DNA of 64,000 bases from Candidatus Melainabacteria bacterium 17Bon1m (GTDB lineage: Bacteria; Cyanobacteriota; Vampirovibrionia; Obscuribacterales; Obscuribacteraceae): contig JAVLKG010000011.1 in NCBI GenBank assembly GCA_032128875.1, positions 64,001 through 128,000 of the forward strand, in the 5' to 3' direction. The translations under genes were made by a program, and so were the position numbers. The notes beneath the pieces were generated by a model, which saw only the letters and a program-made list of their open reading frames with translations, was not told where the DNA came from and ran no database searches. This document shows, piece after piece, positions 19,603 through 48,628 of the stretch; position 1 is the stretch's first letter; each line of letters starts with the position of its first letter.

Positions 19603-21047
19603 TGGCTGAGCTAAATGTTATAGTTCCATATCGCTCAATGCCGTTGAAGGTAGTGTTCTCGTCCATGTGCGCGCTGTTTCCGCTATGGGCGGTTATTGCG
19701 CCCGCTATCATGGGATTTCTGATTGGACGTGCGTTTGCCTACCCAGGTGTAATTCCTCCGCATTTGGTGGCGATTGGTTGCACCACTTTACTCATGACTA
19801 TGTTGTCCGGTTTGGCACTGTCAGCGGTATCAGAGAACAACCGAATTCATATTTCTAAGGACGGGTTATGTTTTCCTCCTTTCTTTTTACCTAGATTGAA
19901 GTTTAAGCGAAATCGCAATTGGAGCGAGCTGCAAGCCGCCAATCTAGTGAAAGATGCCGGACCCTATGGCGGAACTCTTCTTCTGTCTTTCGATAGTGGA
20001 GAGCGTCTAAATCTTCCGCTTCGAAACATCAAAGAATCAGACGTTGAACAGCTTCTTCTGGGTGTTGAACTTTGGGGTATCAACTGCAATCGGTCGCCGG
20101 AATTGATTGAATACCAGCGCACTTTGCAAAATGAGACTCGAGGTGTTGGACAGAAAAGTTACACACAGATGTGGGAAGATGAGCTTTCTCGCAGATTTGC
20201 GCCCACCACTTTCGTTCCATTAGAGCCTGGAAGAAAGCTTCAGGGCGGCCGAATTGAAGTTGTAAGGCAACTAGCATTTGGTGGACTGTCTGCGATTTAT
20301 CTTGCACACCTGAATAAGACCGACCTTGTTGTTCTGAAAGAAGCCGTCGTTCACACAAAGGCTGATCCTGAGGCAAAGAGGCAGGCGGAGCAACATTTGG
20401 ACAGAGAAGCAAAAATTCTCTCGACGCTCGTGCATCCCAACATCGCCCGTGTGCTCGACCACTTTGTTGAAGATGACAGGCATTATTTGATTTTGGAATA
20501 TATCAGTGGACAAGATCTTCGTCAGTTCGTCAAGCAAAACGATGGACAGGAAGTTGGGAATGTCCTTGATTGGGCGATTGATGCAGCGACAATCTTGGCT
20601 TTCCTGCACGGTAATGAACCTCCGATCATCCATCGTGATCTGACTCCGGATAATCTTGTAGTGCGCAATGACGGCGCACTTATTCTTATAGATTTCGGGG
20701 CTGCTAATCAGTTTGTAGGATCTGCAACAGGAACGGTTGTTGGCAAACAGGCGTACATCGCGCCTGAGCAGTTGCGTGGAAAAACCGTCACGCAGAGCGA
20801 TTTATATAGTTTGGGTGGGACTATTTACTATTTGCTCACTGGGCGTGATCCGATGCCTTTGTCGATCAGTCATCCGAAAACTCTACGCCACGATACACCC
20901 GATGCGCTTGACGAACTTGTGGCAAGATTGAGCGCCTTCGAGCCTGAAGATCGTATACAGACAGCGGCGGAGGTGGTCGAGCAATTAATGCTCATAAGGG
21001 CGAGGTTTGATTCGCGTGGCGTTGTCGCAACAGGAGATGCGCTCTAA
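19602..21047 (+). CDS. Membrane Hanks-type Ser/Thr kinase (2 TM + linker domain + kinase)
   Basis: AFGGLSAIY, VVLKE, HRDLTPDN, IDFG, YIAPEQ, SDLYSLG. ATG 19602 overlaps the upstream TGA and follows GGAGG. Confidence 0.9.
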   Translation: MAELNVIVPYRSMPLKVVFSSMCALFPLWAVIAPAIMGFLIGRAFAYPGVIPPHLVAIGCTTLLMTMLSGLALSAVSENNRIHISKDGLCFPPFFLPRLKFKRNRNWSELQAANLVKDAGPYGGTLLLSFDSGERLNLPLRNIKESDVEQLLLGVELWGINCNRSPELIEYQRTLQNETRGVGQKSYTQMWEDELSRRFAPTTFVPLEPGRKLQGGRIEVVRQLAFGGLSAIYLAHLNKTDLVVLKEAVVHTKADPEAKRQAEQHLDREAKILSTLVHPNIARVLDHFVEDDRHYLILEYISGQDLRQFVKQNDGQEVGNVLDWAIDAATILAFLHGNEPPIIHRDLTPDNLVVRNDGALILIDFGAANQFVGSATGTVVGKQAYIAPEQLRGKTVTQSDLYSLGGTIYYLLTGRDPMPLSISHPKTLRHDTPDALDELVARLSAFEPEDRIQTAAEVVEQLMLIRARFDSRGVVATGDAL

Positions 21048-23359
21048 TGGAAGAGCGGCAAGATCAGTTGGGTGGCGGACTTGCTGGACAATTTACAGCC
21101 AGAGGTCAGGGTTTTGAGACTAAAGAGCAGTCTGCCACTCCCGAGTTGAAGATTGCACCCGATGACGTAAGCGGCGAATTACTGCCTGCTCTGGCCGAGG
21201 AATCTCACTCCACAATTGGCGATATTGCTAAAGCACTGCCTTCCAAACGCACCAATTCCAGTAAAGGAGAAGGTTTCGAGCCTCTGGCGAAACTCCCACG
21301 TATTGGATTTGGCTTGCTGTTCACTATAGCCGCCAGCTTTATTTTGTTCCAATTTTCGAAGTATGGCGCTGCTGGAATGTCAACGACTATCTGGATGTCT
21401 ATTCCGGTAGTCATTTATTTCGCGCACTGTATGTTGCGCCTGAGTGATATCACCGGCATGAAGACAGGGACACGTCCTCCTCTTTCAGCATCCACAGTTA
21501 CCTTGATTTCTCTGATCACGCTTACTTGTTTTCCTGTATTCGGCGAGTTTTATCACTTTCCGAACAGACTGCTTGACCCGTTCTTCGCCGTTTGGATGCT
21601 TGCTCAATTCATATGGCCAGTGCTTATTTCACATGCGATTGAGCGCACGGCAAAGGTCCGCACGTTGGTATTGGGTTTGGTGGCGGCAGTGCCATTTTTT
21701 GCAGTGGCTGGACTTCCTGTCCTTTTTCACGAGTGGATGTTTTTCCTCCCCGTCTGGCTGATGTCACAGTTTGTCTGCGCTGTCTATCTGAGTGAGCGCT
21801 TGCGTCAGGTTTTCATAAATGACCTGAAAGTCAACATCGCAAAAATGACGGCATCGAAAGCGCAAGTTGTCGGAGCTACCAAAGATGATATCGTCGTGCG
21901 TTACAGACCGTTCTCGGCTGTAGAGCGTTGGATAGAGCAGCGTTTTACCGGAGGGAATTTGGTAAAAGGTGCTCAGTTGGTGGCGCTTTGGATTTCAGTT
22001 CCGCTAGTAATCGTGGCACTTTTGTTGGGCTTGACTTTTCTCGACATACTCGTCGGGACAAATACGTCGAGTAATCAGCATGTCGGCAAAGCCGCAGCCC
22101 AAGCCGCGGCTAATTTAAATACTAATTTTCTTCGAACCTTTCTTATTTTGGTCGGAGGGCTAGTTGGAGTTCCAGTCTTTGTCTACTTGCGAACTCCTAC
22201 ACACTTGTTGTTCAACAGGAGCGGTTTGCGCTTCTTATGGCGTCACAGCAGCAGACGTGGTCATGATGGTAAAGAGTTGAGTTGGAAAGATTTGCAGTCA
22301 ATTGAATTGGAACGTCCTCTTGGATCCACGCAGGCGCTTGACCAGTTTCTCTGCTTTAGAGCCCATGGCGAAAGAGTCGAAAAGATGAAACTGAGCGCCT
22401 TCGATACAATCGAGGATCGCGAGAAAATCCTAGCCATGATCCGCAGTTGGGCACCGAATGTTCCGCGCCCGCCCGAGGTTGAGCAGTGTTTGGAACCACC
22501 TGCGAATCACAGCTATACAGAAATGTGGCTGCAAGCACTCGCTGCTCCGCCTAAGCGCGAACGACTAAAACCGCTGATGGATGGCGGCACTGTGCAAGCC
22601 GGTAAGTACCGGGTGATCAATCAACTTGGAGTTGGTGGACAGGGTTCTGCCTATCTGTCAAAAGACAATATCAATGATCAAATAGTGGTGCTCAAAGAGT
22701 TTATTCTGCCTGTGCATGTTGATGTAAATGTGCGCAAGAGCGCGCTTGAGAGCTTTGAAAACGAAGCGCGAATTTTAAAGCAGATGGACAGCCCAAATGT
22801 CGTAAAGTTAATCGACTTCTTTGTTGAGGATCATCGCGCCTATTTGGTTCTTGAGCACATCGATGGAATGTCGCTCAGAGAGCTGGTTGAGGAGAATGGT
22901 GCGATGAAAGAACCGCAGGTGAAAGAACTTGCGCTTCAGATGTGTTCTATCCTTTCGTACTTGCATTCTTTGTCACCGCCGGTAGTGCACCGCGATTTCA
23001 CTCCGGACAATTTGATTTTGCAACGCGACGGCACTCTGAAACTCATCGATTTCAACGTGGCGCAACAAGTCGAAGCGACGGTTACAGGTACAGTGGTCGG
23101 CAAACATGCCTATCTGCCTCCTGAGCAGTTCCGCGGCATGCCAACCAGTCAGAGCGACATCTATGCTTGCGGGGCGACCCTGCACTTTTTGCTGACAGGC
23201 GCTGACCCGGAGCCTATTTCGCAATCGCATCCTGGTAAGCAGGTTGCCGGTTTGAGCAATGGCATCGACCACATCGTCGCTCATGCCACTCAGCTGGACA
23301 TTGGGCAGAGATACGACACGATTGGCGAAATGGAAAGCGACCTCAGGGTTTTGGTGTAG
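21047..23359 (+). CDS. Polytopic membrane Hanks-type Ser/Thr kinase
   Basis: About 8 hydrophobic segments; GVGGQGSAY, VVLKE, HRDFTPDN, IDFNVA, YLPPEQ, SDIYACG. TAATG stop/start coupling. Confidence 0.9.
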   Translation: MEERQDQLGGGLAGQFTARGQGFETKEQSATPELKIAPDDVSGELLPALAEESHSTIGDIAKALPSKRTNSSKGEGFEPLAKLPRIGFGLLFTIAASFILFQFSKYGAAGMSTTIWMSIPVVIYFAHCMLRLSDITGMKTGTRPPLSASTVTLISLITLTCFPVFGEFYHFPNRLLDPFFAVWMLAQFIWPVLISHAIERTAKVRTLVLGLVAAVPFFAVAGLPVLFHEWMFFLPVWLMSQFVCAVYLSERLRQVFINDLKVNIAKMTASKAQVVGATKDDIVVRYRPFSAVERWIEQRFTGGNLVKGAQLVALWISVPLVIVALLLGLTFLDILVGTNTSSNQHVGKAAAQAAANLNTNFLRTFLILVGGLVGVPVFVYLRTPTHLLFNRSGLRFLWRHSSRRGHDGKELSWKDLQSIELERPLGSTQALDQFLCFRAHGERVEKMKLSAFDTIEDREKILAMIRSWAPNVPRPPEVEQCLEPPANHSYTEMWLQALAAPPKRERLKPLMDGGTVQAGKYRVINQLGVGGQGSAYLSKDNINDQIVVLKEFILPVHVDVNVRKSALESFENEARILKQMDSPNVVKLIDFFVEDHRAYLVLEHIDGMSLRELVEENGAMKEPQVKELALQMCSILSYLHSLSPPVVHRDFTPDNLILQRDGTLKLIDFNVAQQVEATVTGTVVGKHAYLPPEQFRGMPTSQSDIYACGATLHFLLTGADPEPISQSHPGKQVAGLSNGIDHIVAHATQLDIGQRYDTIGEMESDLRVLV

Positions 23360-23511: not shown

Positions 23512-24807
23512 ATGAAAAGCATGAAACGGTCGACCTTTGCAGTCTTAGTGTTGGCTCTTTCCCTGGGGGCGACCCAGGCTCGTGCCGGCGACTGCGACCA
23601 TGTCATCAATAGCAATGAGGCGCGCACCGAAAATGCCATTACGGCGTCGAAGATTCAATGGGAGACGTCGCTGGACAAGGCGAAAGCCAAGTCAGCAGCC
23701 AGTGGGAAGCCTATCCTCTGGGTCCATATGCTCGGAAACATCGACGGGTACACTTGATCCGCGGCAAATAGCTTGAGAGCCGGGTCGCTCTCGAAAGAAC
23801 CTGTATTGTCCAAACTGCGCGACCGCTTCGTCTGCGGATACCGCAATATCATGAAAGACCCGTATTCGGGCAACTCAGGCATTCACCCTGCAACCGGACC
23901 AGCCGTGACCACGACGAATGGCGCCGGACCTCGCAACCTCCAGCTTTTCATCATGGCTCAAGATGGCACTGTGGTGCACTGTATGCCGGGCTACTGGAAC
24001 CCCAATGACCTCAATGCCGAGCTGGACTTTGCCGACCGCTTGCACCGAGTCTGGATGGACCATTCGATAACCGAGCCGCAGAAGAAAGCACTGTTCGCGC
24101 AAGAACAATTGCGGCATATTCAGACTCACTCGTCGGATGTGGTCGCCCGAAGTGAGCTGCAGGGCTTCGACAAGCAATTCTGCTACAAAAACAACGTGAC
24201 GGATGCCATCGCTAACGCCAGTCTTATCCCGGCTGATTGGCACGATGTTCCGAAAGAAGCGTTCAAGACGACAGACGTTATCCTTCACGAGCGCATGGCG
24301 AAGCAGCCTTTCGTCAATTATTCGGCGTTCAACATAGCCAGTTTCGTCAATTACGGCAGCCATCACTACGATAAGCACGAGAAAGATCTCGAGCCTGAAA
24401 CCATGGCTAATATTCGCGCACACAATCTGCGCGATGTTCTACACGAGACAGGAGATCCTGTTCCCAAAGCTAAGGTCACCAACGTTGCAGCTTCAAAACC
24501 GGCGACAAGTTATCCCAACATGATCACGAAGCCGAAAGAAGTGGAGAAAACCATGGTCGACGGCTTCTGGGGCTATGCTCGCAAAGGCGACTGGGTGAAA
24601 GCCGACAGGGTGGCGAACTACATGTTGGAAAAGAGTCCAGGCAGCCCAACTGGTCACGAGATGAAAGCCGTGATCGCTTACGGCAAGGCGCGCTACGCCG
24701 AAGCCTACTTCCATTCGTACAATGCAATTCGCATGGGCTCGAAGCACCCGACTATCGTAGGCATCTATCAGAAATCACGCACGGCCGCGAGCAGCGCCGC
24801 GAAATAA
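23512..24807 (+). CDS. Candidate exported selenoprotein, thioredoxin-like/SelN-like, 431 aa with TGA (Sec) at codon 82
   Basis: ORFs 23512-23757 and 23773-24807 are in one frame, separated only by TGA 23755-23757 and five sense codons (SAANS). Signal peptide present; SECIS-like hairpin downstream of the TGA. Confidence 0.75.
23773..23794 (+). promoter_or_regulatory. Putative bacterial SECIS element
   Basis: TTGAGAGC-CGGGTC-GCTCTCGA: 6 Watson-Crick pairs plus U-G and U-A; G at loop position 2; 23 nt between the UGA and the loop. Confidence 0.65.
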
Positions 24808-24810
24808 GTA

Positions 24811-24863
24811 GTAAGGGAGCCGCATGCGGCTCCCTGCCAGGGCGGCGCATGCGCCGCCCCTAC
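24811..24863 (-). repeat. REP-like double-hairpin element, copy 1
   Basis: Minus strand GTAGGGGCGGCGCATGCGCCGCCCTGGCAGGGAGCCGCATGCGGCTCCCTTAC; near-identical to 48576-48628. Confidence 0.9.
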
Positions 24864-41440: not shown

Positions 41441-41494
41441 GTACGGGAGCCGTAAGCGGCTCCCTGCACAGGGCTGCGCATGCGCAGCCCGTAC
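41441..41494. repeat. REP-like double-hairpin element, divergent copy
   Basis: GTACGGGAGCCGTAAGCGGCTCCC-TGCACA-GGGCTGCGCATGCGCAGCCC-GTAC; same architecture as the other two copies. Confidence 0.85.
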
Positions 41495-48579: not shown

Positions 48580-48628
48580 GGGCGGTGCATGCGCCGCCCT
48601 GCCAGGGAGCCGCATGCGGCTCACGTAC
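48576..48628 (+). repeat. REP-like double-hairpin element, copy 2
   Basis: GTAGGGGCGGTGCATGCGCCGCCCTGCCAGGGAGCCGCATGCGGCTCACGTAC. Confidence 0.9.

Follow-up and report, generated by a model that had tools for sequence, protein, structure and literature searches.

In thioredoxins, the attacking cysteine sits at the N-terminus of a helix, and the cis-Pro loop precedes the next strand. DsbG and DsbC, which are exported and have this fold, carry a CxxC motif and are recycled by DsbD. Selenoprotein N (SelN) has a eukaryotic SECIS element, located in the 3'-UTR, and we know of no catalytic chemistry that has been established for this protein. PMC8584023 names three hallmarks of SelN: the motif SCUG, an EF-hand, and an anchor in the ER membrane. 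Proteins of the DsbG/DsbC type rescue the oxidised single cysteines of envelope proteins, according to the portion of PMC5751730 at hand. For prokaryotes, 119 selenoprotein families were tabulated in 2026 with their model accessions and Sec motifs (PMC13188914, Table 1). In the lineage studied here, the accessible text of PMC9529120 assigns one annotated Sec protein to a 'Candidatus Melainabacteria' proteome; beyond this mention, our literature search on Sec in the lineage, which covered partial texts, found nothing.

The window, that is, the whole stretch of DNA analysed, comprises 64,000 nucleotides from Candidatus Melainabacteria bacterium 17Bon1m, of the order Obscuribacterales. A first-pass annotation made from these letters had joined an 81-aa and a 344-aa ORF into one hidden gene for an exported selenoprotein. 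Re-reading of the sequence agreed: the two ORFs (23512-23757, and TTG 23773 to 24807) share one frame, the TGA at 23755-23757 is the sole interruption of the 431-codon frame 23512-24807, and the 431-aa read-through product is as had been quoted. The features of the locus are as follows.

23512-24807 (+): whole predicted selenoprotein gene of 431 codons, with the UGA for Sec as codon 82 and the stop TAA at 24805-24807.
23512-23586 (+): predicted signal peptide, residues 1-25 (MKSMKRSTFAVLVLALSLGATQARA), read from the sequence, with cleavage probably after A-R-A.
23644-24057 (+): predicted thioredoxin-fold domain, approximately residues 45-182; beta1 leads to U82, which begins helix alpha1, and a G-A-G-P140 loop precedes beta3.
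23755-23757 (+): UGA predicted to be decoded as selenocysteine (U82); TGA in 73 of 74 loci and Cys in distant homologues.
23773-24807 (+): artefactual 'second ORF' called under table 11 from a TTG, produced by the stop at the UGA; no separate gene.
23775-23792 (+): putative SECIS hairpin with stem GAGAGC/GCUCUC and loop CGGGUC; lowest synonymous entropy and 97.1% pairing.
24058-24411 (+): conserved helical domain, approximately residues 183-300, from alignment A1; model pLDDT above 90.
24532-24804 (+): C-terminal TPR domain, residues 341-431, in long-form orthologues only.

From the comparisons described below, 23512-24807 is very probably a single, mis-annotated gene for an exported selenoprotein with Sec82 at a thioredoxin-type active site. 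Indeed, annotation has split or truncated this gene and its kin. The database entry for the window gene, P0002, has only 318 aa, and relatives in the databases start at differing Met, Leu or Val codons right after the TGA. Among the matches listed, the NCBI relatives of the window protein are truncated 'hypothetical proteins', an example of how selenoproteins are systematically lost in automatic annotation.

The conservation of the TGA was evaluated across the order. A six-frame search of 107 genomes located the protein family in 92, with 1-6 matches per genome, and among the matches listed the TGA lay within the match in all rows but one. A set of 74 homologous loci was composed of 30 from this search, 40 fetched in addition and 4 from the order's second family. 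The same aligned codon is TGA in 73 of the 74, at identities down to ~36%; in L051, the sole exception, the position is taken up by a stretch of N. The 73 TGA loci come from other assemblies (60-odd), maintain a single frame across the TGA, and all encode the T-U-S-A motif. The Sec context reads W-[VI]-H-M-L-G-x-[IML]-D-G-x-T-U-S-A-[AG]-N-S-[LM]-R-A-[VG]-S-L-S, in which S-A-x-N-S-[LM]-R is invariant. Upstream of the TGA, the listed homologues have basic-hydrophobic N-termini; these resemble signal peptides, and the part before the TGA is thus coding.

The possibility of a sequencing error, raised with the original proposal, was checked in contigs from three studies (four public runs). Runs X1 and X3 represent one sample, possibly the source of the window DNA, and X6 and X9 represent other samples. 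At 23755-23757 and in the hairpin, the contigs showed no difference from the window; the TGA is thus no sequencing error. The RNA-labelled runs gave contigs of 16-20 kb at flat depth and were not taken as evidence of transcription. A promoter scan returned no sigma-70-like site. Within the window, TGA terminates 6 of 33 long ORFs, and the codon is therefore not generally reassigned.

Relatives with other residues at the Sec position were sought using alignment A2, a 139-residue domain around the Sec codon, as a profile against 1.84 billion representative proteins. The search gave 798 matches at E <= 0.001. Among the best 150 of the 798, 132 start just after the Sec column and 18 span it. Where inspected, the post-column proteins begin at the first residue (Met or Leu) of the '[LM]-R' following the TGA, the trace left by gene calling that halts at UGA; among them are relatives starting M-R-[AT]-V-S. 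The 18 full-span proteins have Cys (12), Trp (2), Ser (1) or a degenerate or other residue (3) in the column. Codon 82 of homologues is thus occupied largely as the selenoprotein reading had anticipated, by TGA in 73/74 loci and by Cys in 12/18 full-span relatives. The Cys homologues are continuous proteins across the Sec position, with the motifs C-S-[GA]-x or C-L-G-x. The two Trp entries are P0030 and P0123; P0030 nearly duplicates locus L093. The DNA of L093 has TGA at this codon, and the Trp of P0030 therefore reflects the translation choice of a pipeline.

A close full-length homologue, P0122, has Ser at the Sec position (G-N-T-S-S-A-A-S-A-L-R), which could be either a natural variant of inactive or altered function or a TGA-to-TCA change. 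With Sec, Cys and Ser each occurring naturally at the same active site, the family would provide material for asking why selenium is used. Outside the order, 14 of 300 other genomes sampled from the phylum have a distant, stop-free homologue; none of the 14 belongs to the 123 small genomes of family f3 in the same class. Of the cyanobacterial loci that were read (n=11), 9 have Cys exactly at the aligned column and 2 have it one column off. Loci L101-L111 lie in true cyanobacteria-like genomes of ~5-8.5 Mb and encode a distant Cys form of 430-525 codons with the motif K-P-I-L-S-L-R-L-L-G-R-L-D-x-x-S-C-A-N-S-R-F-F-R. By sequence comparison, the window gene is one of a multi-copy Obscuribacterales family, which has Cys relatives in true cyanobacteria and other bacteria.

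The hairpin that had been proposed from the window, a GAGAGC/GCTCTC stem with a CGGGTC loop 23 nt from the UGA, is present in all its parts: the arms lie at 23775-23780 and 23787-23792, and the loop at 23781-23786. It begins 18 nt past the UGA, inside the coding sequence. Across the loci, the structure is a 6-bp stem with loop CGKGUC and a G in the apical loop. The stem is short (5-6 bp), and the 71-nt hairpin stretch showed no extra stability over shuffled sequences (z = 0.30; 117 of 200 fold as well), and thermodynamic stability was discarded as evidence. A search of 23700-23900 against Rfam gave no match at E <= 10. It is the comparative data, and not stability, that place the hairpin above chance.

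Specifically, synonymous entropy was scored on 76 codon columns with a conserved, degenerate amino acid in 70 distinct sequences. Codons +7 to +11 (AGA GCC GKG TCG CTY) had normalised entropies of 0.20, 0, 0, 0.14 and 0.33; the mean outside the hairpin codons was 0.86. The hairpin codons make up 5 of the 6 lowest among the 76 columns (Mann-Whitney p = 1.1e-4). For Ala +8, all 69 of 69 sequences use GCC; the third position of Val/Gly +9 is G throughout, Ser +10 is TCG in 65/69, and Arg +7 is AGA or AGG only. Leu +11 is CTC or CTT only, both of which pair with the opposite G; other Leu codons of the gene are mostly CTG/TTG. In 68 distinct sequences, the stem is paired in 97.1% of cells, as compared to 31-65% with slid partners.

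The covariation suggested as a further check on the hairpin did not appear: none of the 6 pairs was changed on both sides in the 68 distinct sequences, and 33 of 500 shuffles attained the observed pairing of the 6-bp stem. Pair breaks in these sequences were distributed with 9 at the outermost and 3 at the innermost pair. In locus L070, GCC is replaced by GAC and TCG by TCC, a double change that by eye reads as a shifted register. Conservation and wobble-only variation, without covariation, argue that the hairpin is under selection at the RNA level. The conserved peptide L-R-A-[GV]-S-L-S could be a partial cause of the hairpin's conservation; the frozen third positions are beyond its reach.

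The host genome comprises 7.55 Mb in 35 contigs, with the window on contig C11. The first-pass annotation had found no selA, selB, selC or selD gene in the window. The machinery is encoded outside it, on contigs C9, C10, C3 and C4: tRNA-Sec (selC; 67.5 bits, anticodon TCA), selA (496.8 bits), selB (285.8 bits) and selD (370.2 bits) all exceed their cut-offs, and selA, selB and selD have no internal stops. The accompanying view that Sec use is unexpected in cyanobacteria-related lineages proved wrong for this order, in which selA is above the curated cut-off in 85 of 107 genomes. Sec decoding is thus the rule in the Obscuribacterales, with several predicted exported Sec proteins per genome.

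For co-occurrence, one further genome, whose selA is broken by a contig end, was counted as selA-present. In the 107 genomes, family and selA were both present in 81, the family alone in 11, selA alone in 5, and neither in 10. The association has an odds ratio of 14.7 (Fisher p = 1.7e-5, a value that overstates significance as kin are not independent). Ten of the 11 genomes with the family and no selA are below 90% complete; the other, G098, is 93% complete. The genomes without selA and the whole family are G010, G012, G014, G038-G040, G053, G057, G061 and G071. As these ten genomes of the order lack both, and 6 of them are at least 91% complete, the distribution suggests that the family is lost along with the Sec trait and is not converted to a Cys form.

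The structure of the product was predicted using AlphaFold2 with the family alignment, which gave a pLDDT of 88.3 for the whole protein and of 94.2 (pTM 0.91) for residues 30-297. A strand at residues 68-73 is followed in the model by a helix at 83-92, and U82 is therefore placed at the N-terminus of this helix. Assigned by topology, U82 would occupy the place of the attacking Cys, and G-A-G-P140 would be the cis-Pro-like loop. The helical domain has the invariant residues H202, H206, H259, R261, Y281 and Y286 in alignment A1. The TPR domain was matched in the fold search and swamped the search with the whole model; residues 30-297 were therefore folded separately. The top Foldseek match of this part was 7tkv_A, a DsbH-domain protein (E 9.7e-4), and UAS-type thioredoxin domains were among the fold matches. 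These fold-search rows covered the thioredoxin part and left out the helical domain. For a natural Cys homologue, ESM Atlas returned unnamed clusters and a 0.81 lead to a Thioredoxin_7 cluster. Fused longer forms numbered 0 among 405 candidates, which is weak evidence.

The modelled thioredoxin fold is present in the window protein, and the dithiol motif (CxxC, UxxC or CxxU) is absent. There is no Cys at +3 of U82, the motif being T-U-S-A-A-N-S-L-R. C108 and C157 are nearly invariant in the family, and neither is retained in the Cys homologues; these residues are candidate resolving thiols. The original picture of an exported selenoprotein, with Sec at a thioredoxin-type site and a SECIS-like hairpin downstream, thus finds support in the conserved TGA, the Cys relatives, the frozen codons and the predicted signal peptide.

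The window protein was next compared with known families. In Pfam, it matched no family at E <= 1, PF13899, PF03190 and the EF-hand included; no Pfam or NCBIfam model reached its cut-off, and no metal-binding family was matched in these searches. Searching the PDB by sequence returned nothing relevant for the window protein, for profile A1 or for the paralogue P0265. The Cys homologues scored 13-23.5 bits against Thioredoxin_7 and DsbH (PF13899, PF03190), below the cut-off of 27. The closest fold kin are found in the branch of Thioredoxin_7, Thioredox_DsbH (DUF255), AGR2-AGR3 and DsbD-gamma. The window protein differs from this branch in having Sec for Cys, T-U-S-A-[AG]-N-S-L-R for CxxC, and an extra helical domain of ~120 residues, plus the TPR domain in this orthologue.

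The VPGUxxT proteins (NF041382 and NF041383), like the window protein, are bacterial, thioredoxin-like and carry a single Sec without a CxxC partner. Of the selenoprotein models, NF041383 alone gave a signal, over residues 47-107 at E 0.11; the Cys homologue P0124 reached E 0.005. Membership was rejected: the score was 12.1 bits against a cut-off of 275, and V-P-G-U-x-x-T is absent, with G-[YFAK]-T-U-S-A instead. DsbG and DsbC resemble the window protein as exported proteins of the thioredoxin fold, a functional analogy only; the window protein has a single Sec and no CxxC, and no sequence relation was detected. For the 119 families in Table 1 of PMC13188914, no T-U-S-A motif is given, and no Pfam or NCBIfam model listed there matches the window protein. 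The sequence evidence indicates a new family inside the known class of thioredoxin-fold selenoproteins, of which an unnamed earlier listing is conceivable. The set of 119 tabulated in the consulted part of PMC13188914 would gain a family that matches no curated model. As a weaker form of the SelN claim, these proteins would make up a prokaryotic selenoprotein family that had not been listed before, its active site being of a new kind with a single Sec in T-U-S-A.

Resemblance to SelN was the boldest part of the first-pass annotation. Compared by the published hallmarks, the window protein has T-U-S-A and not SCUG, no EF-hand and a predicted cleavable signal peptide. Several blocks of SelN, with their spacing, seem to match the window protein. 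Membership of the SelN family was not upheld: the SCUG motif, EF-hand and ER anchor described in the available part of PMC8584023 are all lacking. Word-based protein searches returned no SelN, and no account of bacterial SelN homologues was found in the literature searched, including the consulted parts of PMC3473315, PMC5751730 and PMC8584023. That the Obscuribacterales family, a paralogue family with a C-U motif and the Cys forms together constitute a putative prokaryotic sister of the SelN Sec domain is a tentative idea, and we think it rather doubtful. It is kept alive by the UAS-type fold matches and by the C-U motif of the paralogue L112. If true, SelN would gain a large family in bacteria, with variants that have Sec, Cys or Ser, and a tractable envelope setting for working out its reaction; given a real likeness, a protein of human disease could be modelled in bacteria.

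In the proposed mechanism, the ribosome would read the UGA at 23755-23757 as Sec by means of the host's own tRNA-Sec, SelA, SelB and SelD, and the minimal hairpin (GAGAGC/GCUCUC, loop CGGGUC) would recruit SelB. Judging from the signal peptide, the product would be exported by the Sec pathway, and the mature protein would comprise thioredoxin-like, helical and TPR parts. Sec82 would stand in place of the attacking cysteine of CxxC, opposite the G-A-G-P loop. It would attack an oxidised substrate sulfur (sulfenate, disulfide or peroxide), giving a selenenylsulfide or a selenenic acid, which a distal thiol (candidate C157) or a partner reductase would then resolve. The TPR domain may hold a protein partner or substrate. 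We consider it somewhat more likely than not that the protein is a redox enzyme acting in the cell envelope through a single selenol; the redox role is suggested by fold and motif, by analogy with single-Cys thioredoxin-fold proteins and periplasmic sulfenate/disulfide reductases.

The Sec might otherwise serve, with the conserved His of the helical domain, as a ligand of a metal or metalloid in binding, transport or a metalloenzyme. The invariant residues include H125, H202, H206 and H259, together with D, K and Y positions of the helical domain, and the Sec stands alone with no partner Cys at +3; several of the bacterial selenoprotein families tabulated in the consulted part of PMC13188914 bind metal. 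However, no metal-binding family was matched, and the proteins related by fold are either oxidoreductases or chaperone-like. We consider a ligand role unlikely. The remaining alternatives concern the UGA itself. Comparison shows it to be kept as an apparent sense position that is matched by Cys in relatives, adjoins a putatively RNA-constrained hairpin and tracks the Sec machinery. A reassigned or leaky stop read as Trp or Gly would also give a full-length protein, which would be no selenoprotein, and the W in P0030 and P0123 shows that some pipeline chose Trp. Nevertheless, TGA ends 6 of the 33 long window ORFs; selA, selB and selD are free of internal stops in a genome that retains the full Sec machinery; distant homologues have Cys here and never a TGG-encoded Trp; L093, near-copied in P0030, has TGA in its DNA; and the family disappears together with selA. 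Such reassignment is accordingly very improbable.

A lone in-frame stop also has the look of a fresh nonsense mutation in one genome. Against a nonsense-mutated pseudogene or an assembly error, the TGA recurs in 73/74 loci (60-odd assemblies), the sequence before and after it is under strong purifying selection, and the contigs of four runs agree at the codon; these data refute either possibility, the chance of which is negligible. Similarly, since gene callers annotate the downstream part alone, the locus could be viewed as two genes: one for a secreted peptide of 81 residues, the other for a cytoplasmic protein of 344 residues translated from TTG 23773 or a later Met. This view was rejected. 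One thioredoxin fold spans the TGA in the model, with beta1 before it and alpha1 after, and the Cys homologues are continuous. Moreover, the two halves, whose independent occurrence would have argued for separate genes, are never apart in the loci examined. The annotated downstream starts vary, and no conserved second start with a ribosome-binding site was found. We regard two genes as extremely improbable, and retain the reading of a single selenoprotein gene.

Paralogues occur elsewhere in the host genome. L053 (contig C4:97539-98408, outside the window) is a short form with no TPR domain that shares the T-U-S-A-G-N-S-L-R motif and the hairpin with the window gene. L112 (L112:163-1503, on contig C6, outside the window) is a third Sec paralogue of 447 aa with a signal peptide. 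Its motif is F-C-U-T-N-A-R-L-A-R, with Cys directly before the Sec, and its DsbH match is below threshold. The protein (P0265) has 35 database relatives, the closest of which (68% query coverage) are cut after the TGA; another relative, P0280 (81% coverage), has C-S at that place.

Upstream of the selenoprotein gene lies a gene at 21047-23359 (+) for a protein of 770 residues, the N-terminal half of which is multi-pass membrane and the C-terminal half of which looks, by eye, Ser/Thr protein kinase-like. No operon partner is conserved beyond the genus; synteny with the kinase-like gene and with ClpB is confined to it. Between the convergent selenoprotein and clpB genes, 24811-24850 contains a G+C-rich palindrome, GGGAGCCGCATGCGGCTCCC (24815-24834), followed by a second palindrome. 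Copies of GGGAGCCGCATGCGGCTCCC occur in the window at 41445-41464 and 48605-48624 with 1-2 mismatches. In the public runs, 24811-24850 has ~30x the contig depth of the gene and joins many different contigs, and is thus a dispersed intergenic repeat.
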